Assembly: GCA_963924565.1 (NCBI GenBank)
Contig: OZ004609.1
Coordinates: 20,646,001 to 20,710,000 of the forward strand
Origin: Ascidiella aspersa
Taxonomy: Eukaryota
Reading direction: 5' to 3'
DNA length: 64,000 bases
Below, one piece after another: positions 38,701 to 63,096 of this stretch (the stretch's first letter is position 1; every line of letters begins with the position of its first letter). The translations under genes were made by a program, and so were the position numbers. The notes under the pieces are model-generated. The model had not been told where the DNA came from, did not search any database, and saw nothing but the letters and a program-made list of their open reading frames with translations.

Positions 38701-41700
38701 GGCAGTCGCGGACGATCAATTGTTAACTAGTAATTATTATTACATCTGGACGAAAAATGACAACAAATGGAATATGATATAGTTAACACTTTGCAACAAT
38801 ATAAAAATTTGATTGCTAGTTTGCTCAATGATGGCTGAATCTTATTTTCGATTGGAAAACTAAAATGATCCCTTTAAATCCATTCTTGCCATTTAACTTT
38901 TACATAATTTTTTTCTCTTCGCAGACGTACATCGTGGTGAACAAGCAGGGAAGCATCTTTCGTTTCAGCAAGGCCAAGTCGCTTTTCCTATTCGAGCCTA
39001 CCAGCAAAATCCGATCGGCCGCCACAGACCTCTACATTCGCCCAATGTTTGCCCACTTTATTATGTTCGTTATTATATGCAACTGTGCCTGTATGATCCC
39101 GGCTGAGCCTGTCAGTTGGATTGAAGATTATTTAGAGTAAGTATGTTTTAATTTACAATTGTAGTTTTATGACAAACACCGAACCCTTTTATTAGCATTG
39201 TTTTTAAAGTGTTTAGTAGGACGGTAACGGTCTCGAATTTATCCGACGGTGTCTCTAAGTAGCCTATTTCTCTGACTTGAACGGAGTATTAACAGTTAGT
39301 CAAGCGGTTCCAAAAGTGAAGTATGTGGACCCCTTAGGGAGAACATGGACGTTTTAGGGATTCCATAAAGGTATAAATAAAATCTTAGTACATCAATTGA
39401 AAAATTATTTTAATTAAAATACACGACGTGGCGCATTCCCTTCCAATGTATTTACACCACTTTTTTGTTTCACATTTTTTGGACTGAAAACAGCAGTTTT
39501 AAGTGGACTTGTTATATGACCTCAATTTATGACGTCATCTCGAATAATTTTATGCCGACCTGTGGACCAGCCATAGGAACCAAAATGTTTAAATAGGGGC
39601 CCGCGTTAAAAAAGCTTAAGAATCGAGTTAGGCTTTGGAATCGAGTCCTGTAACATTTTAGCTTCTGCGCATGTTTTCTAAAATGCGCTATGCCAATAAT
39701 AATTATTATTTCGTTTTAGCTACTTTTTTTACATACTTAGGTGAAACATTTGCAGGCCCTTAACGGCGGTGAAAAATATATAAAGTTTTGTGTAGGGACA
39801 TTTGGCGCTGAAAACAAGGTCAATTAACAACTCGATATGGCTTAAAAATTGACCGAATATTTTAAAACATTTCATTGTTCTTCTAATTATTATCAGAAAT
39901 GTAAGCTTTGCCCAAAAAAGTTGTTTTTGTATGTTTAGAAAATTTTGGATTTTTCAACCAGCTCTAACAAAACGATTGGATAAGAGTTTAATGTGTGAAT
40001 ACAACTATAACTGCTGTTGAATTTTAAAAGCTAATACGATTAATCAGTGGGTATGAGTGCACAATTTCAAGTGCACAGCAAATCGTGAATGGTTAAAAAA
40101 CGCACAAGTATAGGTTTAAGTTTTCCAAAAGTAAGTATCGGAAAAGATGCCATCGAATTATTTGGCGCTTTCTGTTACAGAGTTTTGGGACTATCCGTTA
40201 CAGAGCCGGTCAACCATATCGTTGTTAGCGTCAGACTGACTGATCTTGTTTTCGCTTGTCTTGCAGATATGTGTTTACGTTCATCTATATTGTGGAAGCG
40301 ATGATCAAGATTATCACCAGGGGCTTTGTCCTGCATCAATTCTCGTATTTGCGCGATCCATGGAATTGGCTCGACTTTACTGTCATCATGTCGGAGTAAG
40401 TCTTACATGGCAAGACGGTTCACTTTATTGCAAAGAATCATTGTTCTTTCGATTAGTTAGGAATGTAAAAACGATAATACGCATATATGGTGTTAAAAAT
40501 CAAATAACTTTTAGTATTACTTTATGTTGTAGCTGGTCTATGAGTTATATTATGTTGTAAGGCATATCTTAAAGTACAAACAAACATTAGAGCCTTAAAA
40601 CAATATATAATGATAGTCTATTGGGCGCAGAATGGATTCACACTATACGATATTTCAGTGTCGTTGATTAAAAGATTTTACATTTAACGAAATAAAGACA
40701 ATATTGTCCTCCAGAAATTTTAACGACGTTTTGCTGCCAAACTGAACTGTAAATATGCGCCGGTATGAATGTCCTCCCCAAATCTTTTTATGGATTTAGC
40801 CTCATCTAGATCTGTCAATGTATATCTGTGGTTTGTGAACTTCGACCGATATTTAACTTTATTCTGCTGACAACTGTTGGTATAGTTCAGAATGCTTCCA
40901 TTTTAGGGTTATATGGATTTTATCTGTCAATAAAGGTCTTATTTATCATAACACTAAAGGTACCGTAGTTCGATACCTTCTAATCTGCTGCGTAAATTTA
41001 GCGGGCGTTTTTAACTGTTCCAAGCGTTCAGGGCACCTAATTTATTCAGTACAAAAGTTCTTTGTCACAAAAACCACAAATTTTTTAGGTGTATATAATA
41101 TAAGCGAGTATAATTACTTAGGAATCGAAGTCATTTTTTTAAAACTATATTATCGTAGGCTTAATTTTTTGTAGGCTATTTTGTTGATTAGGTATTACCC
41201 AAGGAAAATCGATTTTATTTCCAGTTTCACAAAACAAAACCTGGTAATATAGTATATGTTATGGCACATTCTTCGTTTGATAGTAGTGGTGAATTTTTTT
41301 TTTTCAACACTGCCACTTCTTTAAACAGAATCATAACAAGTTCACTGAAGGCGATCCTCTCCAAAAAGGAAGTGGGAGGGGGACAGCAAGTGGCGATATT
41401 GAGGGCGTTTCGCGTCCTACGCGCTTTAAAGACAATGTCCGTCATACCGGGTAAGTTGTACGATTAAAACAGTGTTTTTCCGCGGAACGCTAGTGTTCCG
41501 CATTAATTTTTTTTCATTTGACAAATGTTATGTGGAACACCGATCGAATTGCTGTTTTTATACAAAGTGGTTTAGTAGTTTTTATTTTCTGAAAAGTAAA
41601 TATCCACCATCACCAGATTATTTTTTTTATTGTAATTTGCTTCATTTATTGTAATGTTATAATAAGACTCGTTGCGTAATAATGGCATTTATATTGCTTG

Positions 41701-44700
41701 GGCCTGTTGCTGCTTATGACTACAATAATGCAGCCCTATAATTTCAATTTTGTGGTTATCCAAACAGGCTCCGATAACGCACTAAGAAAAACTAAAAAGT
41801 GAATACATTTTTGTTATGTAATTTGTTTTAAAGTATTATTATTCAAAAACTTTTGTTTGGTGTTCCGCGAAATTATTTTAATGCATAAAGTGTTCCGTAG
41901 CTCAACAAAGGTTAAAAAAGACTTGAACGACACTCATTCAGGTACATTATTTTGACCTTCCGACAACCCTCTCTTTTTTAGATTGGATTATTGACAGCAC
42001 AATCGGCCTAAAAACTCTTCGTGGCTTAAAAAAAGGCAATACATCGTTAACAAAAGCTACAACTTGGTCATGTATTTTGCAGCTTTGCAGAATTTTGCGA
42101 TGCTTAACCCCCTAAAAAAATTAATTTAATTGTTTTACTGAAAAGAGACAGTCCGCGATTTTAACATGAACACATTTCACAGCAAATGTTAGTAAAGCGA
42201 AATTATCTAACTTGTTCTTTGCTTGCTTCAATTTGTAGGCAATATACCTAAATTGCTAGTGCTAAAATCGACCAAACCAATTTATTTTGATTCAATGACA
42301 TATTTTTGATTCGATAAGTGTTGCTTTTTGTAAAATTGGTTCCGTTATGGGTAGCTTGTGTTCTCACATCTTGTTATTCGTGCAGATCTAAGGGCGATCG
42401 TAAAGGCTTTGTTGCACTCGATCCGAGCGCTGAAGGACGCCATTCTCCTCACCGTCTTCGTCGTGTCGGTCTTCGCGCTCATCGGATACCAGCTCTTTCA
42501 CGGCACCTTGCGGCAAAAGTGTATGCGCATTCCGGGCACGCTCGAGCTGGCGCCGGACGCCATGTATCTGGCCACATCGGGCCCGAATTTGGGCGCTCCG
42601 GAAACGCCCGAGGCGCTTTTCGCCGGATTCAGGACGCTCGCCGAGTTTGGCTCCAACACAAGCGCCGTTCCGGACACGAATTTTGTACCTATTTACGCTA
42701 CCGCGAGTGCCTTAGAACGCGACTGGGCCTGCAGCAAGCGATTGCAGTTACCCACCGCCGACAGGTCGGACTGGAGCCAGGCTGACGCCACCTTCATGGC
42801 TGATCTGACGAACGCTGCTAACACAACGTACTTTAACGGCAGTGGGTGGACGGCCAGCGATAACGCGTCTGCCGTTTTAAATTACAGCCAGTGCTTTGCC
42901 ACTGGTGAAACACAGCTCGCCCTTTTGCCGCTCGCGTCACTGCTGTGGATCTCAGGTATTGCGCAAGCAAATCGTAACGCCAGCGACATGATCAACGTTA
43001 CCGTGACGTATCAAGTGGCTGCTGTACCTTGCCTGGCCGAAGCAGCTTACTACAGCAACATTAGCTTGGGCCTGGGCGATCGGGTATACAATAGCTCGAA
43101 ACTGGATTTTAATTCGACCAGCTCGGACTTGGATTACGTGCAGTCGACTCTGCTGTACTGGGATCGGCACTTGCGCATGTTTGCTTTTCGGCGTTACGTC
43201 ATACTTTTTCGGATCGTGACGTCACGAGGCGCCAAGAGCTCCGATTTTGTGTATCTATCGGAAAAGAGTGAAGACTCGCTGAGCAACGAAGAACGAAGGG
43301 ACTGGTGCGAGGACAACGCCACTTACTGTCTGTCAGAACCAGCCACCGGGAATTTTTACTACCCAGGATCACCGAACCGTCCAAATCCCGAACCTGTTTA
43401 TTGTGCCATCGAAGAAAAGTAAGACAACTCGTAGAGTTTCGTCATTATTTAATACGTGCGTCAAGCGCCTTGTTTACTTTTCAATAATGTTTTATCGTAA
43501 AAGTTTTTTCATACATTTGTTATTTGATGGTATAATTTATTTTTTTAGTTAAAAATATTTTCGAAAATTTATGTAACTTTTGTTCAAACTAAGTGGTTAA
43601 GCCGCAATGCGAGTTTTTGATCAAATATTTCTCAATACTCACAAAAAAAGAATATATTTATGTTCATCAATCCTAGTTTTGTACAATACAATAGAATTGA
43701 AATCAAATATCAATTTTATTTCTTAGCAATATGTTCTCCAATGAAATAACCAACCACGGGGGACGTTGAATTTTTACTACCAATAATTTAATGTAAAAAA
43801 AACTTAAAAAAAACAACTTTGTATTATTATATGCAGCGATATATGTCCGCTTGGTTACAAGTGCATGATCGGCGGAGCAAATCCGGACTTCGGTTACACA
43901 AGTTTCGATCATTTTTTCCTTTCCTTTCTAACCTCCTTCCGCTTGGTGGCACTTGATGCTTGGGGCCGACTTTACTATCTGGTAAGATTAAAGTCATAAA
44001 AAAGGTTCAAAATAAAAGTCATCGAAGATAAACTTACAACCCAAATACCTGAGAATATTCTCGTGTATCATTTTGCATTGATAGACTCATTATATTCTTG
44101 CTACTTTACAGTAAGCATATAACATCCGGCATAGACAGAACAACTGTACAAGAGGTGCGCCGTTTAAACAGCCAACCATAAACTTAACTATATAGTTATC
44201 GATGCTCTAAACGTGTGGTTTCAAAACTTAACAACAGTTTGTTGAAAGATTCCTGAAAACGTGATTGTTTGGTCCAATCAATTATTAGGTGATTTCCAAA
44301 CAGCGTGTATTTCGTTCAATTATTTCTATAAAAAAACGCCGACGCAATCTTGTGAACTAACCACAATTTACTATGTGCCACTTTACGCAGACACTGCACA
44401 CAATTGGGAAAACTTATGCGATATTTTACGTGGTGGTAGTGCTTCTTGGTTCCTACTATCTTGTAAACCTCATTTTGGCTGTGGTATACATGTCCTACGA
44501 GGAACAGCACGCCGCTGTAGAAGTGGAGGAATTGGTGAGATTAGGTTTTCCGTTTGTGGAGTATATATGTTGTAGGTATAATATTCGTACAAAGGCGAGG
44601 ACAACTCAGTAGTGTAAAGCCTGATTCACTGTAAAATCACGTAAATAAAAATCAATTTTAAAGCTAAGCTTTGAATAAACGTGGCTTTATTTAGAGATAT

Positions 44701-47700
44701 ATTCCACAATATTTAAGCTTAGATATATCGGTAATATATTTCGCTCTATATTGTTAGTTTTTTTTATGAAATTCTTGTAACAAAATTTCGACATTTTTGT
44801 TATACAGGAAGCAAAAGAACGCGAAGAGAATGAAGTAAGTTTCGTTATTAATATGTCAAATATCTATATAATAGTTTGGGCTGTGTATGTTGTATTTGTG
44901 ATATATGTTATGCTAAATTTAAATCAAGTCTTTGGCTCTGCAATAAATGTTTTTGACTTTTACAGAAGTATATAGCATCTCATTTTAAGCATTCTTACAC
45001 ATCACAACAATTTAAAATGAAACAACCAGAAATAACCTGTTTTACGCGTAAAAATTATTACTCCAGTAATTGGGTAAAGTCAAATCATCCTAAAACACCA
45101 AACAAAAGTGCACTCAAGTCAAGTTGGTCTTGATTTTAAAAAAAAACTGTGTTCTGCCGAAAGCTTGAAGATGCGCGCGAAGACGACCTGGTGAGCATCC
45201 ACTGCGACAACGACGATATCGGAAGCAGCGCAAGTGACGTGGAGCGCGGAAGGGGAAGGGTCGGATTGATTACGACATCGCTGACGTCATACGAGACCCG
45301 GGTGTCTGGCGGCGAGACCACCGGGGGGCCGTTCAGCTTCCGGGACTCCCGGCGCCGGCGCTGGCTCGCGTCGCGACGCTCCAGGGCCACCTCGACTAGA
45401 AGCTCGGTTTTCGAAGAAGACGACGGAGCATGGGAGCGGAGGACTACGGCGGGATCGATTCGATACAAGGGATCGGTCAGGAGGAACCGGAATATGTCAA
45501 CGCTTGATCCGAGGTCAAATAAAAGTTGATATTTTAAGCCAGTGCTTTTCAACTGGGTGTATTGTACACCGCGTACCACATTGGTGGGGTGTACTGGGAT
45601 GTACAATATACCACATTACAATAAGCCTATATGATCACACTGTTTTAAGCGACGTATACAATACGTATAACCGCCGATACAAGGGTAATAATTTTAGATC
45701 CGATAAGATACCAAACTCACACAGACATAGCAGCCATGGCGTGGTTTGCCAATTTTTCCGAGTTTGGTAAAATAGCTAGTAGGCCAAGTTTTCAAAAGCC
45801 AGATCACATTTAAGCATATTAACCTGAAAACGTTACGTTTGCTATTTGGTATCGGATACATAAGCCTACTTTTTGCCCAAAATATGGGTATAGTTTACAA
45901 CATAAAATACTGGGTATTAGACGGTACTTAGACATTCCTATTTGCAAATCAATCATTTCAATAAAACATTTATGCAGTTCTGCTCAACCGAGTTCGGACT
46001 GCTGTTCCGACGACTGCCACGACAGAACGCCCAACACCAAGCGTAAAAGAAAGAGGAGATCGCGCGCGTGGAAGAAGCGAGAGCATCACACGAGCGTGAA
46101 CTCGAAGAACTCGAGCCTTACCAGGCTCTCGACAGAGGCTCTGGAGAGCGATCGAACAAAGCTCACAGAGGTCCGTTCGAGCTCGCCCACCATCCAACTT
46201 GTGGTAACGGCCGCTGACAATGAGACACCAGAGAAGCTGCCTCAAGTTGTGGGCGACCTAGTCCCAAACTGCTCCAACAATTTTCTCAGCATCGAGCAGG
46301 CATTATGGAATTCCCCCGGTGTCGCTTCGATGTCAGCCGACTCATTCTCGGACTACTCGTGTCGGCTTTGTGACTCACAGGCAACGTCGTTCAGCAATGG
46401 GAGATGCAGCTGTGCAGGACTGACAGGTTGCTGTTGTGCTTTTTTATTTGCTCAAAACGATGTGCAAATCGGTAACTATATTTAACAGAGGCGGCATGGT
46501 CATACAAACACACTCATAAACTCCTATTAAAAAGACACTAGCTATAAACAGGGTCATGTTCACAATTAGTACACTTTAAGAGTACTGAAAAACGTTTTTA
46601 AATATTCATTTAATTATTTTACTTTTTACCGGATTATAAACTAATGTTTTAGACTTAGTAATCTTGGATTAATTGTTCTCTCCAAACACGTAAACTGTAT
46701 CTGTTAGAATTAAATAGTTGCGAGTGGTAAACTACTCAACCGATGGTAACCCTGGCTATAAGTATTAATATAAAGGATTATACAAATATATATTGTCTTA
46801 ACAAAATAGTGACAATTCAAAGATAATATATATTCCTGCCAGAACGATTTGTATAAAACGTGACCAATGCATTTGCCAGTGCTTCCTCGCTTACTTATTC
46901 AATCGTAGTTCTTTGCGCATACACCGCCATATCTACAACTTACCTTTCAGGTTCCCGCAACAGCAGTAATCTTCAAGTGCCAATTTTCTTCGAAGAACGC
47001 CGCCTCAGTGAAACTTCGTCGCTGGATGAGGGCCAACAAGTTTCTCATCAAGTAAGAGCTCGTATAGCGGTCATCGTCTGTAAATTGTCGTTTGTCCTCT
47101 GAATATACTTCTTTTGTTATAAACACAGGTGGTCGAAGCAGAGGTAAACCATTTGGCCCCCAGCGAGGTGGACGTATTTGCCTCACCTACACCAGACAAA
47201 GGTTTAACAATACCAGCTGGCACAAACTGTTCGCCTAACCTTCTTCTTCCTCCTTCTTGCTGTAACGAAATCAGAGGAAGAGGAGGAGATGAACTCTCTA
47301 TTCCCAACTCACCCATCTTTCTTCCTAACAATAAGTACAACGGTGAGTAGGTGATTTCCAAACATTATACAGTTGGTTAAACGAGTGACAAAACTGATAA
47401 CCAAAATTTTTATTCAAAATCTGATCTTCTAACTGGTATCTCGCATCGGATCAAACGTGGTCAGTATTTTTGCAAACCGTTCCAGGTCGTCAAACCAAGC
47501 GGCGTATATCGTAATACGAAAAATATTTTCAATAAAAAAATGACGTGAAATTTAACACTGTTACTTGATAATCAACGCTGTCGCATCACAGACATATACA
47601 GAAAAAGGCCAAATGTTTACTAAAAACACCAAACGTAGCAAATAATTTTTTAAATCAGAAAACGCAACGACGCCACTACTCTCTCCCCTTCCGAGTCCTG

Positions 47701-50700
47701 CGTTAACAGGGTCAGTTGTGTCTAGTCCTCGCAGTCGCCTCTACAAGCGAAAATCGTCGCTCTCCAAGGAAAGGATACGCATCATCCAACTACAGGTATA
47801 AAGTGTTATTTCAAAGTTCTGTTGGTGTATTAATGACACCAATCAGGTCCTCCACACACATTGCGGTTTTAAGTAGCAACATTCTATGGCTGATCTTATA
47901 AAGGCAATTTCAATTTATTTTCAGGAAAGTGATGACCAGTTTTGCGACGAAGATGACGAAATTACACCCGTACCGAGTGAGCAAACCGTTTTAATGTGTC
48001 GTTTAAAAAGTTAAACTTGTAAAACCTTTTGAAAATTGTTACCTTAAAAAGCATGTTATTTATTAATCAGTTAGATATAGTTGTTCGTAACTTTTTTTCA
48101 AATTATTTAATAATCGAAGGGTTGTGTTATTTTCTTTGCTTAAAAACTCGTATCGGGGTTATCCTTTTGTCATCGCCGTATTGCGCCCGATTTTGCTTTT
48201 AAAATACATTGAGTAAAAAAATCATTTTCTAATGCGACGTGCCATTTCTGAAAAGCCACCGAGAAGACAAGGAAGAAAAAAGTTGTGCGAAAGCAAACGG
48301 CGCAGAGAGTTCGACATTTCTGCGATATTTTCCTTGACTACTTTGCTTTATGGTCTTGCTGTCCACCACGATGGAAGGTAGAAAACGAAAAATATATCGC
48401 AGTGTGTTTACATTATTTCTATAACACTGTAAAAGGTTGCATTGTGTAAGCTTCTGAGGCGAATGTATATCGTACGGCTATAACAGTGGTTCTTACCTGG
48501 GATGCCGCGGCACTCTATAGGGTGCTTCTTAAAACAATTTTTTTGTGTACGATAAGCTTCTTGTTATAATCTTTGTGTACGATTAAAGTGCCAAAAATTA
48601 AAAATGTTGTTTAGCTATTCTGCACATTTAATGTGCTGTTCCAATCTCGTTTATTGTAACGTTACATTTAAAGTTAACTTTAGCAAAAATACGAGCAAGT
48701 GCGCCGCTAGGTATTTATAATTTCCGTAGGGTGTCGCAAGCTAAAAAAGGTTGCGAAACACTGGGCCATAACCACGTTTCTTTGTACAGTTATTTACGTG
48801 TCTTACATTTCTCTCAAACAGGGCTTCCAACGAATGGTGGAGAACATTGTACTGAATCCCTTCACCGATCTTTTTATCACCCTCTGCATCGCGCTCAACA
48901 CTCTCTTCATGTGCCTCGAGCGGCATCCAATGGAGATAGGGTTCGAACTTATGCTGGAACGAGCGAATTTGGTAGGTGGGCTTTCTCTCACTCCATCGTC
49001 GAATGTTTTCCCAGTTTAACCTGAAAAACAAGCCTAGTTGTAATGTGAAATTATCTTTATATAAAAAAGTATCATTAAAAACTTCAATTAAACTTTTTTG
49101 CAAGACGTGACTTTGCTCTTTTTTACCGAAACTCCAAACAGGTTTCAAAACAACTTTCCTAAGCTATTTATTTCCAAAAAAAAATTTATCATAGGCTGCT
49201 GGAATGTACAAATTGTCTTATTCACTTGGACAAAAGATTATTGCTCTGCTATTAATTTACATCTCCGCTCTATTAAACCATCACCAAACCACTTCAACAA
49301 AGGACTGAAATCTCTCTATACTTAGTGTTAATAAAACGCACCAGTTACCGTAGCTTTGCAGTTCACCCTACTTCTATATTGTGAGGCTACGTATAAGACA
49401 TCTCAATATTTTCTGCAGTTTTTCACCATTGTCTTCACGGTGGAGATGGTGTTAAAGATTGTCGGTCTGACTCCTTTTCATTACTTGGCGGAGCGTTGGA
49501 ATGTCTTCGACGCAGTAGTGGTCTTCTTCAGTTGCCTTGAACTACTTCTTAAATCCATGAACGGACTTTCTGTGCTGCGCGCATTTCGATTAGTGAGTAC
49601 AAATTTCCAAAAGATAAAACGTACTGATTAACGTACAATTGTTTTTTTGGTTTCATAGCCTTTAATGTTGAATATGTATGTTTAAAAAGCAAAATTACAA
49701 AGCGTTTGACAGCATACCACAGTTTTAATAAATTTCTGTTGCTCTGTATCCTTTCTGCCAACACAAAGCAGCCCTGCGCACTTTAATGGTAAAAAGTTTT
49801 TGGACCCACATTGCCTTGAAGTGCATTAACATCATCACACCTTTTCAGATGCGAATTCTAAAGTTAGCCAAACAGTGGCCTGTTTTAAACAAGCTGCTGA
49901 GAACCATCGGCAAAACGATTGGCAAGCTTTGGCATCTGACAATCGTCTTCATGCTTGTGCTCTTTATTTTCGCTCTTATCGGGATGCAGCTGCTGCGACA
50001 GAGCTACATAAATCATTACGGGGTAGGTCTTGTAGCTTGTGTAGTGTTTCTATAAACATTTATAAGAGTAATATTATTGAGTCCTGTATGTCGCGGCTAC
50101 TATTAGAATCATATAAATTGTTTCTTAACACCGTTAAATCAGCCAGTAATTAAGCTTAATAGCATTTGGCTTAAAATAAATTATCACTTACCTGCAAGTC
50201 AAATTGCATAATTTTATAGAATACATGTAGGCTATGCAAAACTAACAAACTGCAACCATTACAGAGCAACCAGCCTCGTTGGAATTTTACTGACTTTCCA
50301 CACGCAGTCATGGTTGTGTTTCGAATTCAGTGTGGGGAGTGGGTCGAGAACATGTTCAACTGCCTTAACGTGGCCGAACCTGGCATCTGCATTCCGCTCT
50401 TTATTCTCGTCTATGTCATCGGAAATCTTGTGGTAAGAAGAATATAGTTTAAAGTTATTAGAAGCACTTGGGACAATACATATTCTATGCTTATAAATTG
50501 GTTGGGGATACAGTAGATAAGTTTATATAACTTCATTAGTTCTGCTTTACAGTTTTAAAAAGTTTGTCAAAAATATATGAGCAAAACATGAAATCACGAT
50601 GCTCATTTTTTTTTAACAAAAGATCAAATTAAAAAAATCAATTCTATTTTCAGATTTTAAACCTGTTTCTGGCCCTTCTTTTGAACTCCTTTAGTGGAGA

Positions 50701-53700
50701 CGCACTGCAAACCACGGAAATCGAAGGAAACAGTATTTCGGAGGCATTCAACTACTTTGTTATTTGGGGAAGAAAACGAAGAAAACAAATATCCAACATG
50801 ACGACAAACGTATGCCAGGTTGCTGCTGTTGTGATGACGTTTTGATATACTAATATGCACGCTTATTGAGTGACATAGATTTTAATTAAAAAAAAAGTAT
50901 AAATATAAGAAGGATTACGAATTGGACTAAACAAGGGGTTCTACATTGGGGTCCGTGGACTTCTTGAGGCCACGTGAACTAGTTTTATGGGTACATTGAT
51001 GACTAAATGAAATCTTGGTGTATAATTAAATAATAAATGTGTTTTTTAACAAAAAAACGATTATTTAAAGAAATGACAATAGTTCTGCTTCGCTAAAAAA
51101 AGTGTAGAACCCATGCACTAAGCCAATAGTTTCTTTTTTTTCAGTTTGGAGGTGTCGAAATACTTTTCATCCTTGTACCAATTAGTATCAATCTTTAAAA
51201 ACTCCACAGTTAATCAAAAATAACTAACATGATTTTGAATTAAATTAATAAAAGCTTTGTGTTTTTTTTGCACCTACAGTTCTAGATAATTTTGTTATTG
51301 TTTTTGTACCACTAATAGCAATTTGACTAATTGATCAAGAGAAAAACTAGACGGTTGTTGATTTTGCAATTTGTTTTAAGTAAAAAAGATGACTTCAAAG
51401 TAAGTCAAATTTGTCCCAAAGATTGAATTTGTTTCGGTGGAGAACCGTGGTCTAAAGCAGGGTGGTCTAAAGCCAGGCCCGCGGGCCACATGTGGCCCGC
51501 GAAGCACTGTTGAATTATTGTAATGCGAACAATTTGAGTTTGTATTCAAATAAACATAAGTGACCAAAGAACAGCAAGCATGTTCGGATCCAGAGGGCGA
51601 TGAGAACGCCTAATTTTTGGTATGTGTTGGGCCGGTTAGAACAGGGGTCGGCAACCTAAGGCCCGCGGGCCGGATCCGGTCCGCCAAAGTAATTCATCCG
51701 GCCCGCCGCCTCTTTGACGAATTATAGACACGAGTCCATTTTATATACTTTTTTACTTTTTAACGACGTAAGTGCAAATTTCGCGTTTGGCGCCAATGAT
51801 CTTTATACATCCGGTTCATTTACATTTTGATGCTGTCCTTTGAAAAAGATTAGTGCTTCTTTACCGTTGCATCGTGAAAGGCTGACAATTTCGTCGCGGC
51901 CAAACGGAAAACGTATTTAAAAATTTTTATTTTCGGCAATGTAATAAAACTTGCAAGAAATTTAAAAAAAATACCGGTATACCAAAAGAAACGCCACGAC
52001 TTAAGAACTTAACAAATACTGAACTACATTAACCAATAAAGTTATCGCGTTTCTTCAAAGTAGTTTTATTAAACTGTTTATTAGTAGTAACACTTTACTG
52101 CCTCCTTAAATGTAATTAAACACGATCCGAGACCCGCCTGATTCACACCATATTAATAAATTAACTGGTTTTGGCCCGCGACAAGAAAAAGGTTGTCGAC
52201 CCCTGGGTTAGAAAGTCGCAGTACGTATATAGAACTTTATAAAATGGCTGTTTTGCAAACTTATAACTTATATTTGCGTTTTGTTTTCCGTCTTTTTAAT
52301 ATGAACATAATATAAAAGTAACGACCCTAAATAAATTACTATTTTTTGTCACTTTAAAGTAAATGCACAATATACATAATTCGACTATCAGCAGCGCAGT
52401 TTTCAAGTTCCATGAACGGAACGAGCGCTTAATTACAAGCACGTCTTTCACCACCTGCAATACTAAAGGAAGATCATTTTTTCCGGGTGTTATTATGCCA
52501 CGATTAGCGCAACATCTGCGCCGAGTTGTGTGAAAGTCAGCTAAATTACAAGCTGCGGTTGAGGGGAAATAAGTTGTGTCCATTGCACACTTAGCACGTG
52601 GTCTTAGAGTATGCTTAAAGAGCATAATTTTGCGTTAACCATCATTACTTAAAAATGTAGATTTTGAAACGCGCAAGACAGTCGTCACCATTATACCTCC
52701 TTTTAAGAATCTGCTTCAGTTAAACAAATGTCGATGTTACACGAACATCGAATATTAGCGCAGAGACCGAATGGCGAGGAACATACTGCGTATAACTCGA
52801 CGTTTTTTAGAGAGAAAAAAAGAAAGAAGGTTTGACTTAGCGTTGTCAATTGTCGAATACACACTTGCTAATCAGTCAACCTAAACAAATAACGAAAGAG
52901 AAAAACTTTCAGCGTTTACGGTCGACCAAACAAAAGACGAAAAACGGCGTTTTGCGCTCGATTTTGGTTTCGCATTAAACTAAGACGCGTGACCCAATTA
53001 CTTAAAAAGCACGCCGCTTCGAACAATTTGTTACGATGACAACGAACAAAAAACGATAATATCACTTCCAAAAAGGGGGTAAGAACTCCCGCCCCCCTGG
53101 ATACGCCACTGGGGGCAATGGATAATGTATAATATTTTTAAACTTCTTAAGTAATACATATTACACTTATAAATAATACTAATAATCGCATTTTGCAATT
53201 CCAGGGGTGGGCAATTGGCCCCCCTTGCCCCCCCGTGCGGGCGCCCATGGGTCTGACCCTTTCCATTATACAATTTAATCGAGTCAAAAAACATTCTACG
53301 CTTATAACTGCGGTCTTCTTCAAAATTGAACGTTTTGTGAAATACGCAATTTTTTCGCGCTTCGCGCGAACATTTTCGCCACAACACACTTGCACTGCAC
53401 ATTTGCACATTTCGACGTTCCTAACTTTAAGAGATTGCCTTTATTTAACTCTACCGTGTCGAAAAATATGCAGTTGGGAAAATGTACGCTCATTACTTGT
53501 TCAGCCGTTCTGCTGCCGCTTGCTGATAGGAGTCCGGGGTTCTCCCAAAAAGATTATCGACAGTTTGCCGACGATGGTTGAAATGAGAAATCTAGAAAAT
53601 GCGAGCAAAAACAAGCCAAAGACCGCCGACGAAGAAGTTGCCAATGAACCCACGGGTAAAAAAAAACTTTACAGTCAAGTTTAACTGATTTTTCTTTACG

Positions 53701-56700
53701 GCACGTGTATTATTGTTAAACAATTATTATTTTTTGAATTTTAATATAGTAGCAAAATATTTTTTTTCACGCGTTGATTTTTAAATTAGAAACGCAAAAA
53801 AAATACAAGATTAAATAATTATTCTGTTAGTAAAATATACTTCATATTATCCAATCCTGGAAATATTATTTTATTTGCACGTCTTAACAACTCATTGCTG
53901 CTTGTATGTCGAATGTTGTGTCTATATACATGTTTCTGCAGAGAATCAGCCAATGTTGCTGAGTGACAAAACGGTGGCTATCACCAACGGTGATGCGGCA
54001 CCTGACAACAACAATGACATCCCTTCGAAAGAGCACCACCATCGACATCGCAGCAGACGACACCACAGACACAGGCACCACCATCGCCATCATCATCACC
54101 ACCATCACAACAGCAACCATCACAATGAGAAGCAACCGGAAGTAAACCAGAAGCAGTTGTCCAACGGAGCGGCATGCAAAGAACTGTCTTCGAAGACCAA
54201 CGGAGTTTGTCCAAAAGTTGAGACTGTTGACAGTTTTCTGAAAGTTCCAACACTTGACGTGGAAAGCAGGAAAGAAGATTGCAATAGACCCACCGTCAGA
54301 TGGGAGCGTTCCAACTCCGAAAGCGAGGTTGTGGCGCAAGTAAAGCGACAAGCGGTCTCTCGAAAGACGAGCGCGCCAGCGACGCACAGTGAACGCCAAT
54401 TGGCAGAGAACGGCATTGCAGAAGACACCGGAGCGAAACGACTTCAAGGAAAAAGGGGATGGCAAAAACTCCGCACCGCAATCTTAAATAACCCTGAGAA
54501 GGTGAGCTTGTAATAAAAATAATCACACCAAGTAATTAATGAAATCACATGTAAGTTGGTCCAAAAAACCTGTTAAAAAGGTACCTTATGTTGAGCGCTA
54601 GAATAGCACAAAACTGGTTGTTTTATCTTGTCAATAGATGCAGCAAATGAAGAACGAAATCATCGAACCGAAGGAAGAGGAAAAAGATCCCGAAGAAACG
54701 GAAGAATTAAAAGTACCGTAGTTACAGTGGCTTTTTTGTATAACTTTTGTGCACCGATACATTTGATTTTATTTGACAAACATCATACACAACAACTTGT
54801 AGAACTACACGCTCAGAATGTCGTGTTTAATTTGCTGTACAGTTATTATATTTTTGATTTTTACTACATGCCTGTAATTATGTTAAATATAGGGTTATTT
54901 TTGTCACCGGTCCTGCATACCCAACCTTTAATTATTGTCCTATACGTATAAAATCTTTGAACGACATGTTTACTTTCCACAGACAAAGAAAATGGAGATT
55001 TGCCTTTCCTGTTTTCCCAACGAACCTTTGACAACCGGGTATTGGGCAACATTCCGCGGAACCGCCCATAAAATTGTCGTTCATCGCCACTTCGACAATC
55101 TTGTCATATTTTGCATTCTTCTCAGCAGTGCCACACTGGTATGCTGAACTGTAAAATCCTATAGTTAAACGAATCATGCTCACAGTGTTGGTTTTAAGTG
55201 TTGTTTTATGATATATATATATGTATATTGGATCTTATACGGCAAGTTAATGTATGGTTTGGCCACCCGATAGTAACTTTGTATAGCGACGTATTAACTA
55301 CAGGGAATAATAACCGTGAATTCACTACATGATTAAATAACATAATTGTTGACGGCGTAAAGGGCGATTATACCTCCGATACTTCGGTTGTATTGTAAAG
55401 TAGTGCAATGAAAATAGTTTACGAAAAGTGCTATCCGGTCTTCGTCCATTTTTTGCTATATTCGAAATGAAACGTCTTCGTTAACCGGTGATAGGCATTG
55501 GAGGACGTCTACCTTCATACGCGACCAACTATGCAACGAGTTGTACAAGCTATCGACATTTTCTGCTGCGTGTTCTTCACTCTCGAAATGCTCATTAAGT
55601 GGGCTGGATATGGCTTCAAATTTTACTTCACTAACGCCTGGTGCTGCCTTGACTTTGTCATCGTGTTGGTGAGTAACACTTCGCTGTTAGTAAAACTAAA
55701 TGGTGGTTGCAATATAATTAGTTTGAAGAACTTTTGCTAGTAACACCTAATCTTTATATTAAGAGATACATTTTTGCACGCGGACATGTTTGTTACAATT
55801 GTGTATGTGAGTGAATTATTTTGTTTGTAAATGATTCTACTGTATTTGTACCACAGAAAAATAGTTTTTAAAATAGGTGTGTTTTGATGTTATACTGAGA
55901 CATATAAGACCTTGGCTCGCCTAGGAGAATAACATATATATTACTGTATTCATAGGCACCAAACTTTCAAAATTCCAAGGCGCTATCTTCTAACCAGTGC
56001 AAAATATTTTAATAATTACATAAAAAATGTGAGCGCTTAAACAACAGCTTTGCGCTGTTGCATGTTGTCACTGAAACAAACTATTTCATCTTATATAACT
56101 TTTTTATAGCGACTTGTTCCATGGCCTCGTGCCTATACGGGAAGTCAGGAAACTTTTAAACACTTATGCTGAACTAAAACTGTGCTACAGGAATTAATTT
56201 TGTACACTTATTGATAACTTTGTCGAATTCCAGGGCATTTTGAAGCCCTGTCAGAAATCCGGGGTCCAACGCTCTGCACACCACCGTTTGGCGCCTATGA
56301 CTGTATCATCTTTATCTATAGAAACATTTATTTCCCTCAGATTTCTATACTCAACCAAGCACTGGGTTCGAATAAAGATGTCGATCTAAGTGCATTGCGA
56401 GTTTTGCGCACGTTTCGCGCTTTAAGGCCGCTTCGGGCCCTCTCGAGATTCGAGGGAATGAAGGTGAGATTATATGTTAAATGCACATTATACACTTAAA
56501 TATACATATACCAGAATATACAGAAAAAATATTATTTTAATTACCATGTTAACACTCCTGATGCACAGTTTGCATATCTTTTAGTGTAGAACTTTCTAAT
56601 TCGATTCGTTCTAGATCGTTGTCGACGCGTTAATTCGAGCTGTACCGTCCATCGGTCACGTGTTCATGGTGTGTGTGATGTTCTGGTTGATATTTAGGTA

Positions 56701-59700
56701 AGACAGAGACAATATATCTGTGTACGAGTATAAGTTTCATGTACAGCAATACCTAAAATCATTAAAAAACGTACTAGAAATTTTGTGTTTAGAACCATTT
56801 GACTTCTGAGCAACTGTGTAATTTTCCTATTCTGTCTTGCTTTGCAGCATCTTGGGCGTCAACCTGTTCGCCGGCCGCTTTGGCCGGTGCGTATCCCTTC
56901 CCACCGGGGACATTTTGCCCAGGCGTTGGCCCGACGACACGAACAACACGCTGCCCAGCCTGGCCCAGCAGTGTTCACCCAACAACACTGAGCTGCTGCG
57001 ATATTTAGGCGGCGAAATAACCTCAGTAATGGTGAACCCGGCTGTCGTACTTCCGTCGGTAAGCAACCGGACGGAATGTGACAACTGCGCCCGATGGTAA
57101 GATCCTATTCGTTTTATACGGTCCTTACACAATAAACAGCCATAATACTTTCAAAGAGACAACTCTAAAATCATTCAGTTGCAGAACAAAATAGGGATGT
57201 CTGATACTTGCGATACCTACACTCTTTTTGACAAAAAATATCGCGAAACGATACCAAATGACGTCATTAATAAACTCAAACAAGCAGGGCAGTTAAAATA
57301 GTTGTTTGTGGTGGTAATGTTTTCCAGGTTATTTGGCAAAAAAATGATAAGGGTTAAGAAATCTAGTTACTTCCAGTTGTTGACCTATAGTTTTTGATTA
57401 ATTTACCTTGCAAAATCGCTACGTTGGATTGCAAGTCATGGCTCAAATGCATATTAATTCGGTACCTAGCCCACTTTATGAAGTCTAAAAACACTGTCTA
57501 ATGTTATGTTGTAAGTTTTAATTTATTTAGAAACAATAAACATTAAGGCGACCATGCTAACAAAATACTATTATTTTTAATATGCAAACAAGAGTGAATT
57601 GTGCACGATACCTGATCTTTTTTCCAGGTTAAATTCGACAGCAATTGACTGGCAGGTTCCTAGCGTGAACTTCGACAGCGTCATGCGAGGTTACCTTGTT
57701 CTCATGCAAGTACGTGGAATACCAGAGTTTTACTATTTTAATATAGTATAAGAATGTAGAACGAAAGACCGGTGACTGTGATATTCTATTGTTTAATCTC
57801 AATACATATATGGTTGGTATACATAAAACAAGTCTCTTTCCATAGGTTTGCTTCTGAATAACTATATAGCATTCTAACAGTGTTGTACAAATAGAAAAGA
57901 AGCCAATGGTTTTAAAAGACACTGTACGATTGAAATACAAATCAGCAAAAGAAAACTTGGGTTTTGCAGGTTGCCACATTTAACGGTTGGCTCGAAATCA
58001 TGGAAAGTGCAATCGATATTACTGGAAAGGAGCAGCAACCTTCCTACGAGCATTCTTTCTTTAATTACGCTTACTTCTGCGTTTTTATCGTGTTTGGAGC
58101 CTTTTTCTCGCTCAATCTGTTCATCGGAGTAATTATCGACAACTTTAATCAGCAGAAAATCAAGTCACAAGGTAGCGCAAGTCTGTCATGTCTCTTGAAA
58201 AAAAAAATCAAATTGCTTATCATGCTGTTAAACGAATAACACAAAGATCAACTGGGTCATTTCTGTAAAAAAAAAGAGAAAATAATATTCAATTTAAAAG
58301 TTAACTTACAATGCTAAACACATTAAAATCTTGTATAACGTAAAACGTAGTATTCACAGTTTTGTCTCTTGTGATACTTTGTTTGCAACTCCGCTTTTAA
58401 TATGTAAGTGCAGTTGTACACTTCTCTATGCTTTTTGTTAACTCTTATTAAGCAGTCCTAACTACGAAGCATCGGCGTGTAACATCAATCAGCAAAGTGC
58501 ACTAGTGCGTAAAACGCTAATTTGTAAGTTTGGAGCTACACTAAAAGAGGAGGTTAAAAATTCTATTCAAGGTATATAACGATTTTGACTCAGGAATAAA
58601 ACACTTTTTTTTGGTTTGTGTTTGAAAGGAAGTAGTTGGCACAATAACTTTTTACTTTTTTTCAGTGGAACTATCAACAGAATCAGTTGTAGAAAACGGT
58701 TGGTCGTATTAAACTTAAGTTTTCACAGGTGCTTTTGGTGGTAGTGGTATCTGGTGCTTTGTTGTCAAAATTTCGCTCAAAAAATAATTTAATTATTCTT
58801 GCGAAAATCGAAAATCCACAAAGCAATGTTTTTGTTGATTTTGGTGATCTTTTTCTGTAGAATTTAAATATTCGTTGAACATGTTTTCTTAATTTAGAAT
58901 CATAATTAGGTTTTGTAGAGATATATTACAGTATGTTGCTATATGCGTGATACATTAAATATAATTACAGCTGAAAATGTATTGAAATATATATCCATTT
59001 TAATGACAGCTATGTTTATTACATAGGAAATGCAGACGGCGTTTTTCTTACTGAGGAACAGCGTCGATATTACAACGCCATGAAACGTATGACGTCAAAA
59101 ACGCCCAAGAAACCAATTCCCAGACCCCAAAGTCGAATCGCGAACAAGGTAAATTATTGTTTGGTTGCAAACAAAGGTTATCGGAAACAACCCCAAGGTT
59201 TTTTAAACACGATCACTTGCGCTGTCGTCAGCTAATTAGACTGGGTATGACGTAAAGCTATGAGACGTTATTATTATTAATATTATTTTGCTTCCAAACA
59301 ATCCAGGGTCATTTTTTTCTAGGTTTAAATAAATTACTTATAAAGTATTATTTGTAAGTAGAAAAATTCAATTAAAAATGTTATTTTTGTTTTAAAATGT
59401 ATTTTTATTGCTTTCTTATCGTTTTATTGAATCTTTAAACAATAACACTGTGTATTCCTTGCTTATTGTTAGATTTGAAAACCATACTCAACCGCTGCAA
59501 TGTGTTATTCGTGTGATTCCATGTTATTGTACACTACAGCTTTATGACGTGGTGACATCACGAAAGTTCGAGATCGGCGTGATGGCAGTGATAATGTTAA
59601 ATCTGGTTGTGATGGCGGTAGAGCACCACACCATGTCCAAAGAAATGGCGCAGTTGTTGCAATACTTCAATTTGGGCTTTATAAGTAAGATATACACCAT

Positions 59701-62700
59701 CCGAATAGGCAATATGCTTGGCGTTACATTACCGGTAAACCACAAACAAAAACACGTCAAATAGCGGCAAAATGTGTCACCATCAAATGGTGGCCTACAA
59801 CTAAGCCTAAAGCGTACTACGTTACGTGACGATAAATCTAAACTAAAACAAATATATCTGAAGTTACAATACTGTAAATTTTCGCTCCTGTTTTATCCAT
59901 ATTTTTTTAATTAAAAAATCGTGCACTTGTTGGTAAAGATTTAATAAAGATTTACTTTTGTTATACGCAGCTTTGTTCGTGATAGAAGCCACGTTAAAGC
60001 TGATTGGCCTGCGCTTCTACTATTTCACGGTGCCCTGGAATGTTTTCGACTTTTTCGTGGTTGTTATTTCTCTAATAGGTAAGATAACATCAAATCTAGC
60101 TTTTTGATTTATTCCTAGCCACTGTCTGGTTATGCTAACAACGAATAGCAACAACATAGTGACCAACTTCTTTCTCTATAAGTTTTGGTTACCTAAATAC
60201 TTCGCATTACTATAATATATGTACGACCAATCGACCATGTCTAATTTATTAAAATGTTGATATCACTGTTGATTGCATGGTATTGCACGTCGTAGCTCTC
60301 GCATGAGATCCGGAAACAAATTTACTCTTCCTACGTGTCGGACGTTTGCAATTCCTGTCATATTTCACGACCAAAAGCACGCAACACAAACCAATTTAAA
60401 AAATATAATATAGAAACACTCAGCACGCATGTATCGATCATTTTTCAATTATTCTTTATTGTTGTATTATTTTTTAACTTTGAAATTACGATGCACCATT
60501 TAATAAACTAAACTTGATAGAACGCTTAGGAAACATTGCACTTTTTTATTAAATATTTAATTATACTTCATACTTGGAATTGTAAGCGTTTCTTGATTTG
60601 CCTGCTGGTAACAATACGCATGGCACCTTGGCGAGAAACAAATCCCTATAGAATCAAAGCACGTTCGAATTGAATAACATAGTCGTGTCAACTTGTGTTT
60701 GTATGTGCTTGTGCGCGCGCGCGCGTGTGTGTAGGCTGTAGTCTCGTCCCAGTCTGTCCGCGCACTTCCTTAAACCTTGCTCGCGCGCACCGCCCAATGC
60801 ACTGGCAGCACACACACAAGCACGCTTCAGGCCACCTGCACCCCTTTGCGTTTTCTCCTTTTTCACTCACCGACTCCTCATCTATCCCTCGTGCTCACTC
60901 TGACACGTCTAGTGAACTGCCTGTCCACAGCGACCGGTCTGAACGACGTCATGTCCCAGTACTTCGTCCAGCCAACGCTCTTCCGCATCATTCGACTCTT
61001 TCGCGTCACGCGCATCCTTCGACTCATCCGCGAGGCAAAGGTTAGTTGCGTATGCGCGTTTTCGCTACCGTTGTACGGTTCTATACTTCGTGTTTATTCC
61101 GATACTGATACCTAATATTTTATGCACAAAAGGGTTGTCCTATCCAATACCATTCGATACGCAAACGTAACTTCTCTGTGTTGTTAATCGCAAAACTGCT
61201 CTGTCGCAAAAAAATCTTTGTAACTTTAATTGTTAATATGCTATTTTATAAATAAAAATATTTTTGAAAGTGGAGAGCGCTTAGTTAGATTGAAAACCAT
61301 GGCTAATAGGTTAGGGTTATTTTGGTATCGGGTCTGTACCGATACCATTGTAGTATCGGATGAAAACCGATCTTAGAACTTGGCATCGAAAATAGCGCAC
61401 TAGTATGATCTTAAAGGGGGGTTATTAAATAAAATTTAATTTAAACGTACCTTGTGTAATCCGTTTGTTAAACATGACAAAATCAAAATTTAACTCTATA
61501 ATTCACCTTAGGAAATATTAAGCAGTATATATATGTTTTATTACTAAAAATGAATTTTAAAACATATGTCTATACTTTCAGTATTTGACAGAAGTGCAGC
61601 GAAATATTATCGGGTTTGGTGCTTTAATAAATTATAGTTTAATGATAGCAAACTTAAATATTTGCTACCGACTGATACTACAGCGTTTTAAAGAAAATAA
61701 ACTAGTTCCCTTCTTATTGTCGCCATAGGGGATTCGAACGCTTTTATTCGCTCTCATGATGTCACTTCCCGCTCTCTTCAACATCGGCTGTCTTCTCTTT
61801 CTCTTCATGTTTATATACGCCATCATTGGGATGTCGCAATTCGCCGACGTGCAGAAGCTTGCCGGTATCGACGACATGCTCAACTTCGAGACATTTCCCA
61901 ACGCGTTCCTCGTGCTGTTTCAGGTGTGCAAAAGAGTGACCCGAGTTACCATATTCGCCATTATACGATGTACAAACATTAACGTCTGCGCGCTTATCCT
62001 ATGAAACTCACTATGTCAGAAGAAGGATTTTGATTTCATAACTGTTTGTAAGCATACAACTTTAATTAGTTTCTTTTTTTGAAATTACCTGTTTTCGTTA
62101 GCTGTACTTTTCATACCATCTCATTAGGGAATCTTTTGGGACCGCCAAACCCTGAAAAGTCCAACAAATTTCTATAGATCTTACAACTTGCATTAACACG
62201 CTTATATAGGTTTCGACCTCGGAAGGATGGGATCGCTTCATCGAACCTATTTTGCGGGACCGACCTCCCTACTGCGACTTACACCCGCCAGATGGGGGTA
62301 GATCTAACTGTGGAAACGCAACCATAGGTGAGCGTAGTACTGGATAGTAATGAGTGATAACGTCTTTAAATGTGTTTGTTAGTTGAAATGTGCGTTCGGG
62401 GTTTTAACAACCTTGAAGTGATAGAACTGAATTTTGTTACTATTTTTCATAATACACATTTTCTAAAAAGTCTTGTTTCACCACTAGAGTACTATAACCA
62501 CCACGGAAAGTATGTTACTATGAATTGTGGCAAAATATTGTATTGAAATTGACATACGTTAGTCACATACTTTGCTGTCATTTTTATTTTAAATAGAATA
62601 ATAATTGAAGTAAATAAGTTTAATAGCCTACCTAGACACAGGAAACCTTACATTGTAGCAGGATAGTGAAATGTCAAATTCTGGCGCCCAAGAAAGTTTG

Positions 62701-63096
62701 GTATAGTTCGACTATTACAAAAACATTCATATACAACAAGGCTTACGTTGCTTTATTGTAATGGGTTGTACAACGGTCAACTATTTAGTTATGTCACTCT
62801 CTTAATGCGATGGCTGTTGTGGCATATTTTACAACATATATTTACGCTACACAACAGAAGGAACATACTAGGTGAATTATTATGAATTCGTTAAAATGTA
62901 GTGCATTCTCAACGTTGCACCTGTCGTAATAGTTTTGTTTTTATTTCTAGGAGTCATCTACTTCGTCACTTACGTAATGATTACCTTCTTGATCGTGGTT
63001 AACATGTACATCGCAATTATACTGGAGAACTTCGTCGTAGCCACGCGGGAAAGCGCCGAGCCTCTAACCGCTGACGACTTCGAACAATTCTTTGAG
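23648..63096 (+). CDS. Voltage-gated sodium channel alpha subunit (Nav1/SCN family, divergent D/E/N/E filter); 38 coding exons in window, 3' end beyond window
   Basis: Manually joined GT-AG exons, all phase-compatible, total 7182 nt: 23648-23753, 25092-25309, 38925-39136, 40267-40395, 41329-41450, 42386-43418, 43837-43981, 44391-44534, 44808-44834, 45164-45513, 45978-46426, 46951-47051, 47129-47342, 47659-47795, 47925-47976, 48256-48377, 48822-48971, 49419-49592, 49849-50022, 50265-50432, 50654-50809, 53505-53655, 53942-54501, 54638-54712, 54983-55138, 55495-55668, 56341-56463, 56615-56697, 56848-57096, 57628-57709, 57970-58171, 59027-59148, 59540-59684, 59971-60078, 60931-61040, 61729-61923, 62210-62327, 62951-63096. 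Four S4 helices, four P-loops and Nav hallmarks ([26 protein letters not shown], TEEQxxYYNAMK, [25 protein letters not shown]). Confidence 0.96.
25092..25309 (+). CDS. Nav exon 2, N-terminal domain ([13 protein letters not shown]...[12 protein letters not shown])
   Basis: Homologous to Nav LEAGKxLP...PLEDLDPYY; ttttcggcag| acceptor, aag|gtgtgt donor. Confidence 0.9.
25843..26212. mobile_element. Copy of the AAGTC/GACTT MITE in Nav intron 2
   Basis: CAGTGTTGTAATGACTT...TTTACAACACTG; TSD not preserved. Confidence 0.8.
29697..30014. mobile_element. hAT-type MITE
   Basis: TIR CAGTGATTCT(C/T)AAC; TSD TTCTAGAC on both sides. Confidence 0.88.
30126..30177. repeat. 24-bp direct repeat
   Basis: TCAATGCATTTAGAGGGGTTAATG twice, separated by TATA. 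Confidence 0.8.
33779..34214. mobile_element. hAT-like MITE (GGAACAC family); related copies at about 5776-6100 and 41470-41925 (reverse)
   Basis: CAGTGTTTATCAACC...GGTTGAAAATCACTG ends; shared GGAACACTTAATG/GCGGAACACCAAAC cores across copies. Confidence 0.7.
38107..38493 (+). CDS. Candidate alternative first coding exon (129 aa, Ser/Pro-rich) splicing in phase 0 to exon 3
   Basis: Long GC-rich ORF with ATGATG start, donor GAG|gtgcga at 38493/38494 in phase 0, and a strong upstream acceptor ccttttTACACAG at 37977. Confidence 0.6.
38925..39136 (+). CDS. Nav exon 3: N-terminus end plus DI S1
   Basis: [15 protein letters not shown]...[13 protein letters not shown]; canonical splice sites. Confidence 0.95.
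40267..40395 (+). CDS. Nav exon 4: DI S2-S3
   Basis: [20 protein letters not shown]...[11 protein letters not shown]. Confidence 0.95.
41329..41450 (+). CDS. Nav exon 5: DI S3-S4
   Basis: [19 protein letters not shown]. Confidence 0.95.
41470..41925. mobile_element. Reverse copy of the GGAACAC MITE family, immediately after Nav exon 5
   Basis: Reverse-complement similarity to 33779-34214 (GTTTGGTGTTCCGCGAAATT, TAGTGTTCCG). Confidence 0.65.
42386..43418 (+). CDS. Nav exon 6: DI S4-S5, S5 and very large extracellular loop
   Basis: [12 protein letters not shown]...[17 protein letters not shown] followed by about 300 aa of open GC-rich frame ending YCAIEE; donor aa|gtaag. Confidence 0.9.
43837..43981 (+). 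CDS. Nav exon 7: DI P-loop
   Basis: [46 protein letters not shown]. Confidence 0.95.
44391..44534 (+). CDS. Nav exon 8: DI S6
   Basis: [34 protein letters not shown]. Confidence 0.95.
44808..44834 (+). CDS. Nav exon 9: 27-nt micro-exon (EAKEREENE)
   Basis: tatacag| acceptor, |gtaagt donor, phase 0/0; matches the post-S6 EAxxKE helix. Confidence 0.8.
45164..48377 (+). CDS. Nav exons 10-16: DI-DII cytoplasmic linker (7 exons)
   Basis: 45164-45513, 45978-46426, 46951-47051, 47129-47342, 47659-47795, 47925-47976 and 48256-48377 are phase-compatible; Ser/Arg-rich; ends in Nav-like WSCCPPRWK. Confidence 0.75.
48822..50809 (+). CDS. Nav exons 17-21: domain II
   Basis: [19 protein letters not shown]; WNVFDAVVV; [20 protein letters not shown]; PRWNFTDF...[12 protein letters not shown]; [18 protein letters not shown]. 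Confidence 0.95.
51642..52205. mobile_element. hAT-type MITE (GGCCCGCGGGCC family), apparently nested in an older related element starting at about 51458
   Basis: TIR CAGGGGTCGGCAACCT/AGGTTGTCGACCCCTG; TSD GGTTAGAA on both sides. Confidence 0.9.
53505..55138 (+). CDS. Nav exons 22-25: DII-DIII linker (includes His-rich tract) and DIII S1
   Basis: 53505-53655, 53942-54501, 54638-54712 and 54983-55138 are in phase; ends [32 protein letters not shown]. Confidence 0.85.
55495..58171 (+). CDS. Nav exons 26-31: domain III
   Basis: ALEDVYL...[11 protein letters not shown]; [20 protein letters not shown]; VNFDS...[14 protein letters not shown]; [18 protein letters not shown]. Confidence 0.95.
59027..59148 (+). 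CDS. Nav exon 32: DIII-DIV inactivation linker (VFLT)
   Basis: [33 protein letters not shown]. Confidence 0.95.
59540..63096 (+). CDS. Nav exons 33-38: domain IV and start of the C-terminus
   Basis: [11 protein letters not shown]; [43 protein letters not shown]; NFETF...[10 protein letters not shown]; [16 protein letters not shown]...[12 protein letters not shown]. Confidence 0.95.
60711..60732. repeat. Alternating purine-pyrimidine tract (GT/GC)n
   Basis: gtgcgcgcgcgcgcgtgtgtgt. Confidence 0.7.

Follow-up and report, generated by a model that had tools for sequence, protein, structure and literature searches.

A 64,000-nt stretch of the Ascidiella aspersa genome (assembly GCA_963924565.1, contig OZ004609.1, positions 20,646,001 to 20,710,000 of the forward strand; hereafter the window) contains a sodium channel (Nav)-like gene in which the domain I (DI) loop between S5 and the pore is greatly lengthened, raising the question of whether the added sequence belongs to the channel protein and, if so, what it might do there. 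The original prediction had been of a giant loop of about 325 residues derived mainly from one 1033-nt exon, and measurement bore these figures out: the exon lies at 42386-43418, and the loop from GxQLFxG at the end of S5 to NPDFGY spans 326 aa, versus 85-103 aa in four vertebrate Navs. The stretch added beside the DI pore amounts to ~240 residues. Across four-domain channels the DI turret (L5I) ranges from 60 to 105 residues according to the text of PMC6259924; the window loop is ~3 times the upper end of that range (105 aa) and adds a whole inserted domain, here in a Nav1-clade channel.

The surrounding gene was modelled as 25 exons, all with AG/GT ends and joined without a stop; the model covers the membrane domains only, with the cytoplasmic linkers and N-terminus outside it and the C-terminus running past the window (L008). 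It contains four domains, each with an S4-like arginine/lysine repeat. Over the membrane domains, identity was highest to a Ciona savignyi channel (P0010), at 69-71%, falling to 47-51% for the four vertebrate Nav1s and to 43-44% for a DEEA channel from an echinoderm. The selectivity filter reads D/E/N/E (codons beginning at 43955, 50337, 57982 and 62222), compared with D/E/T/E in P0010, so that the lysine of the canonical sodium-selective Nav1 filter, D/E/K/A, is absent and an acidic residue is added in DIV. Membership of the Nav2 (DEEA) group, represented by BSC1 and TuNa2 and likewise devoid of the filter lysine, was rejected on the basis of the D/E/N/E filter and the higher identity to vertebrate Nav1s. 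Sodium selectivity requires the filter lysine, as stated in the text of PMC6259924, and since it is missing from both Nav2 and the window channel neither is likely to be sodium-selective; a D/E/N/E filter without lysine would instead favour calcium or non-selective permeation.

No ankyrin motif turned up when the II-III linker region was searched by pattern, a single unrelated ES-E string being the sole match; a histidine- and arginine-rich tract lies in the II-III linker exon at 54020-54130. PMC8192821 gives a D/E/T/E filter, a weak inactivation latch and no ankyrin-binding motif as marks of CiNav1b. The window channel shares with ascidian Nav1b (C. savignyi H2ZPT9-H2ZPU8) a D/E/x/E filter, the latch GVFLT and the missing ankyrin motif, and differs from it in having Asn rather than Thr at the DIII filter position and in encoding the full DI loop, which nine C. 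savignyi models lack. From pairwise identity (to P0010 and five other Navs), filter, latch and ankyrin absence, the gene is assigned as the ortholog of ascidian Nav1b, which is a known but unstudied paralog. The lysine-less filter, VFL latch and missing ankyrin motif also lend independent support to an earlier suggestion that the channel is specialised, and judging from these sequence features it is probably not a spike generator. The DIII loop is lengthened as well, being about double that of a fish Nav (97 aa versus 50 aa with 2 Cys) with two extra cysteines. In the C. savignyi models examined the DIII loop is 43-54 aa and may also be clipped. Upstream, positions 1-38000 of the window contain only nine open frames of at least 110 codons (110-169) and may represent long 5′ introns or the upstream region of the channel gene.

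Coordinates of the channel gene and its features in the window
Feature	Position	Strand	Basis or remark
Four-domain channel gene, modelled span, 25 exons	38925..63096	+	AG/GT, stop-free; tblastn maps
1033-nt exon: DI S4-S5 linker, S5 and almost entire S5-P loop	42386..43418	+	AG/GT, phases, stop-free
RQKC cysteine to EPVYC cysteine, 295 aa, 11 sequons	42520..43404	+	53-71 aa in four vertebrate Navs
Variable N-terminal arm of insert, low model confidence; includes invariant Cys (42730-42732)	42538..42765	+	pLDDT, alignment
Predicted alpha/beta core with conserved W, C, C, R, W	42766..43332	+	AF2 on window sequence and P0025; conservation
Hydrophobic stretch, unconserved	42916..42963	+	Hydropathy, alignment
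Conserved loop tail, begins at W	43303..43404	+	50% mean pairwise identity among relatives
Exon with last two turret cysteines, P1 helix and DI filter Asp (43955-43957)	43837..43981	+	
DII pore exon, filter Glu (50337-50339)	50265..50432	+	
DIII S5-P loop, two exons, lengthened: 97 aa, 4 Cys, 4 sequons	56848..57709	+	
DIII pore exon, filter Asn (57982-57984)	57970..58171	+	Lys in Nav1
III-IV linker, latch VFL	59027..59148	+	Replaces IFM
DIV pore exon, filter Glu (62222-62224)	62210..62327	+	Ala in Nav1

Coding status and conservation of the loop exon

The 1033-nt exon begins after AG and ends before GT, is entered in phase 1 from the exon at 41329-41450 and is left in phase 2 into that at 43837-43981. 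No stops interrupt the DI reading frame across this exon and its neighbours, versus 10-13 in each of the other five frames. At 249 nt, the next longest of the 25 modelled exons is far shorter. Base composition in the insert (GC 55%, GC3 0.65) is similar to that of the other exons of the gene (GC3 0.57-0.62), and the flanking introns have a GC content of 33% and 26%. All 11 predicted N-glycosylation sequons were found in the order originally listed, where a mean of 3.2 is expected from shuffling and 11 was reached in 0 of 2000 composition-matched shuffles; the extra cysteines anticipated for the loop number five between RQKC and EPVYC.

Searching with the loop alone (phmmer) against 1.84 billion representative sequences gave six matches, the best with an E value of 2.8e-32 over 295 aa, and all six proved to be the same Nav exon, with S5 upstream of the loop and RP..EP.YC downstream. 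A cluster look-up added three near-identical members, and a profile search returned 13 hits, comprising six already in the query, six new sequences with the loop and one snail protein matching in S5 only. The outcome was 15 further open reading frames with a single-exon loop (12 distinct, once three near-duplicates are removed), so the conservation in relatives on which the original prediction had been made to depend is present. Between the two canonical cysteines these 15 span 249-385 residues, with 295 in the window and 53-71 in vertebrates.

Within the loop, numbered from 42502, C77, C177, R230 and W268 are invariant in all 15 aligned rows, and W91 and C131 are kept in at least 90% of them. 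A patch of the form G...RW..R followed by YxE (G258, W265, R268, Y289 and E292 in exon numbering) is conserved in 77-100% of 13 rows, although the window sequence itself deviates from the consensus at G258 and W265. With core limits taken from the P0025 model and alignments of 15-16 rows, occupancy of the core is 98% and identity between its rows 27%, only slightly above the identity of the rest of the loop (88% and 21%), while identity reaches 50% in the tail and 85% in S5; the window sequence and P0001 share 41% identity in the core and 24% in the rest of the loop. The insert thus evolves fast and yet retains a scaffold. Sequons exceed the shuffled expectation in every one of the 16 sequences (p at most 0.018), most of their positions shift among relatives, as expected if glycan density and not position is selected, and acidic residues are more numerous than basic ones in 13 of the 16 loops. 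By eye, the tail at 43303-43404 seems to correspond to the standard Nav turret segment that finishes with DALLC; when the tail was compared with vertebrate turrets by profile, no significant domain resulted. Four relatives (P0005, P0027, P0028 and P0029) carry 9-12 loop cysteines, versus 6-8 in the others, which suggests further disulfide-bonded additions in some lineages.

The main challenge to this interpretation is that most of the stretch might be a retained or cryptic intron, or belong to a minor splice form, with the working channel having an ordinary loop. All nine full-length models retrieved for C. savignyi have loops of only 60-106 aa, and no junction reads for the insert exon appeared in ~6% of one RNA run. 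However, the nine models clip the loop differently, and their retained pieces tile the loop profile one after another (positions 53-109, 118-162, 231-262, 269-309 and 320-330), albeit with some weak matches in this nine-sequence search (domain E 5e-6 to 0.08). This pattern leads us to infer that C. savignyi does encode a long loop and that its models were forced to vertebrate length. The nine (P0010-P0018, UniProt H2ZPT9-H2ZPU8) are models of one gene and probably annotation artefacts worth correcting; constructs or trees built from them miss the loop. Also against an intron are the reading frame, which stays open for 249-385 codons across 16 sequences and encodes conserved protein features, and the exon-like GC and GC3 of the insert. 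Within the exon there is just one donor-like site, which is weak, and both acceptor-like sites are badly placed for excising the insert. A cryptic intron is unlikely because 15 relatives share the single-exon loop with its conserved Cys, Trp and Arg and its excess of sequons, and we regard this alternative as very improbable.

Direct RNA data were sparse. At the very low depth available (~6% of one run), mean depth was 0.53 in the 434-base bin 42708-43141 and 0 in the bins on either side, which amounts to roughly one or two reads within the insert, with no junctions; the first mate lay on the minus strand, corresponding to sense RNA in the usual stranded library. A DNA contig over 42366-44192 differed from the window at three positions and one gap, all intronic and too few to weigh. 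Inclusion of exon 42386-43418 in the mRNA is suggested instead by its conservation, and full translation of the exon is considered highly likely.

The distribution of the insert was also followed within the A. aspersa genome. This genome gave four Nav-like matches; besides the gene described here, the other three were limited to S5, so the insert is present in a single copy. Ciona has four Nav-like genes, equal to the four matches in this genome. In hand-read exons, the Nav1a-like (L005, G000:C9, minus strand) and Nav1c-like (L006, G000:C1) genes appear to have DI loops in which ~115-120 aa separate the first turret cysteine from the second, with additional cysteines in both loops, and the separate Nav2-like gene appears to have a short loop of ~35-40 aa. 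Because the Nav1a-like and Nav1c-like loops also appear lengthened, part of the DI loop expansion would be lineage-wide; in these comparisons the large domain is limited to Nav1b, the paralog with the changed filter.

Predicted fold of the insert

An inserted folded ectodomain had been proposed for the loop, and AlphaFold was applied to the insert alone, apart from the rest of the channel. For the window sequence the prediction was weak (mean pLDDT 55.6, pTM 0.59), with 125 of 305 residues below 50; values under 50 cover residues 13-88 and an alpha/beta core occupies residues ~89-277. A compact relative, P0025, gave a better model (mean pLDDT 70.2, pTM 0.69), in which 10-residue block means reach 80-94 over most core helices and strands. 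Both models place their elements in the same order (helix, strand, strand, helix, helix, strand, strand, helix), although they share input rows and are not independent of each other. Conserved cysteines, an aromatic core and the confident P0025 model are the hallmarks of a folded domain seen in the insert. Together with conservation in the 15 other open reading frames, the agreement of the two models supports the ectodomain proposal, and a core of ~150-190 residues is likely, on these predictions, to be folded.

A reservation applies to the single hydrophobic stretch noted within the loop, which is present but whose best 19-residue hydropathy is 1.45 (2.34 for S5) and which is unconserved in relatives. 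An extra membrane helix at 42916-42963 was rejected on these grounds, and since the stretch is both low-scoring and unconserved, normal topology with an extracellular loop is likely.

No relative of the predicted fold emerged from the databases searched. In Pfam only S5 scored above the cut-off and nothing in the insert came near it, while matches in the PDB sequence search were confined to S5. Foldseek gave no match at E 0.001 or better with either model, and the best VIA alignments (Z 5.0, rmsd 3.2, 63 aligned; Z 3.2, rmsd 5.0, 88 aligned) were not above background. Several candidates were considered and rejected: pAdhesive_6 as a chance match (Pfam E 0.15-0.22, one of 16 members), WWE, colicin-M and hot-dog entries from Foldseek and VIA as tied at noise level, and His_Phos_2 clusters in the ESM Atlas (0.87-0.89, 129-143 shared features), where the P0025 core likewise had no usable match. 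Neither sequence nor fold matches to Ig, VWA or Cache domains were found in Pfam, Foldseek or VIA, and these searches singled out no other described ectodomain family, lectin and SEA folds included. A word search with the loop only, over proteins of 603-2000 aa, scored none of 4641 candidates, and the profile search of longer proteins spanned 784-2235 aa, so longer complete Nav1b models, for example in RefSeq, may hold the loop. The lack of fold matches is no proof of a new fold, though the fold is possibly new.

Comparison with known channels and candidate roles

The closest known case is the DI turret of vertebrate Nav1.4, which is expanded at the same site, between the first two turret cysteines. 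That turret is rich in N-glycans, with seven sequons, as described in the text of PMC11666101 and PMC6259924, and its glycans shift gating (text of PMC11666101). The Nav1.4 addition is ~36 residues and too flexible to resolve, whereas the ascidian loops add ~200-330 residues and, unlike it, contain additional cysteines that are conserved, as well as a core predicted to be alpha/beta. Among four-domain channels, the long cysteine-rich turret of Cav3 (exon 12a/12b) is another case comparable to the window loop; in invertebrate Cav3, selectivity can change with the length of the turret and the pattern of its cysteines (text of PMC4436565 and PMC6259924). No mention of the DI loop of CiNav1b occurs in the text sections of PMC8192821 examined or in its two text supplements. 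More widely, no description of the long DI loop was found in the text of openly available literature, and gene models were covered up to 2235 residues, so a database may already contain the loop without comment or a review may mention it.

One reading of the insert is as a mainly glycan-bearing scaffold, an enlarged Nav1.4-type loop acting through bulk and surface charge (toxin shielding, trafficking or voltage shift) with the fold as carrier. The sequon excess in all 16 sequences at positions that move between lineages, the acidic bias in 13 of the 16 and the exposure of ascidian filter feeders to Nav toxins, as argued for CiNav1a in the text of PMC8192821, are consistent with such a scaffold. 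Invariant non-glycan residues and a gap-poor core nevertheless exceed the needs of a spacer, and the large form occurs only in the paralog with the changed filter, making this reading unlikely.

Toxins, beta subunits and glycans all act on Nav channels at the pore turret, and Nav beta subunits and Cav alpha2-delta offer an analogy, in manner of working only, as glycosylated extracellular domains placed at pore turrets. The alpha2 protein sits on L5I and L5III (text of PMC6259924), the same two loops that are lengthened in the window channel; the known subunits are separate proteins, however, whereas the domain of the window channel is built in. In the favoured reading the insert is likely a built-in extracellular cap or accessory module, with the chances of capping being its main role judged about even. 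It would fold as a glycoprotein domain stabilised by disulfides and joined to the domain I turret through both of its ends, with those disulfides presumably forming among the three conserved extra cysteines and glycans attached to the insert. The domain, possibly in concert with the longer DIII turret, might dock above the outer vestibule, where it would control access to the outer pore and tune the gating of a D/E/N/E channel that may pass calcium or be non-selective, with altered fast inactivation. An accessory-module role could be of use in animals lacking Nav beta subunits, the genes for which are absent from Ciona genomes (text of PMC1971062). A beta substitute is not obviously needed, because CiNav1a gates fast without an auxiliary subunit, as reported in the text of PMC8192821.

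The domain might alternatively act as a sensor or anchor that binds an extracellular ligand, a matrix component or a partner carried by another cell, thereby gating a calcium-permeable channel or fixing its location. In the conserved patch G...RW..R and YxE there could be a candidate binding site, but this patch could equally serve as a surface for docking on the channel, the window sequence is off consensus at G258 and W265, and lineages share ~27% core identity, less than a conserved pocket for a small ligand would lead one to expect. The filter, the latch and the lack of an ankyrin motif speak against a part in conducting spikes, in keeping with a sensory role, and an Scn4-like gene, which may or may not be Nav1b, is enriched in a photoreceptive organ of Ciona (text of bioRxiv 10.1101/2025.07.01.661410). 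No pointer to a ligand was found among the Foldseek and VIA fold matches. Such a role is possible though somewhat doubtful. Its strongest form, in which ascidian Nav1b would be a Nav1-derived calcium-permeable receptor channel whose turret-grafted domain, of undescribed fold, binds a ligand or matrix partner and controls opening, is a quite unlikely reading of the sequence features; were it true, the sister group of vertebrates would have converted a voltage-gated sodium channel to sensory or adhesion-coupled use.

Whichever role applies, a clade with turret domains of 250-385 residues indicates that the Nav1 scaffold is able to carry its own extracellular module, and a large domain on a lysine-less paralog suggests that tunicates use a form of signalling not yet studied. 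With the corrected exon, both what Nav1b does and a fold that may be new become directly testable.

Other features of the window

A high-copy repeat lies in an intron of the gene at 48490-48770, where contig depth reaches ~7000 (57-65 nearby) with many loose ends, and smaller depth peaks occur near 39240-39670, 41840-42270 and 45310-45750. Two similar element copies, at 51660-52210 and 63570-64000, begin with ggggtcggcaacc; the copy at 51660-52210 ends in matching inverted sequence and by eye resembles a non-autonomous DNA transposon.
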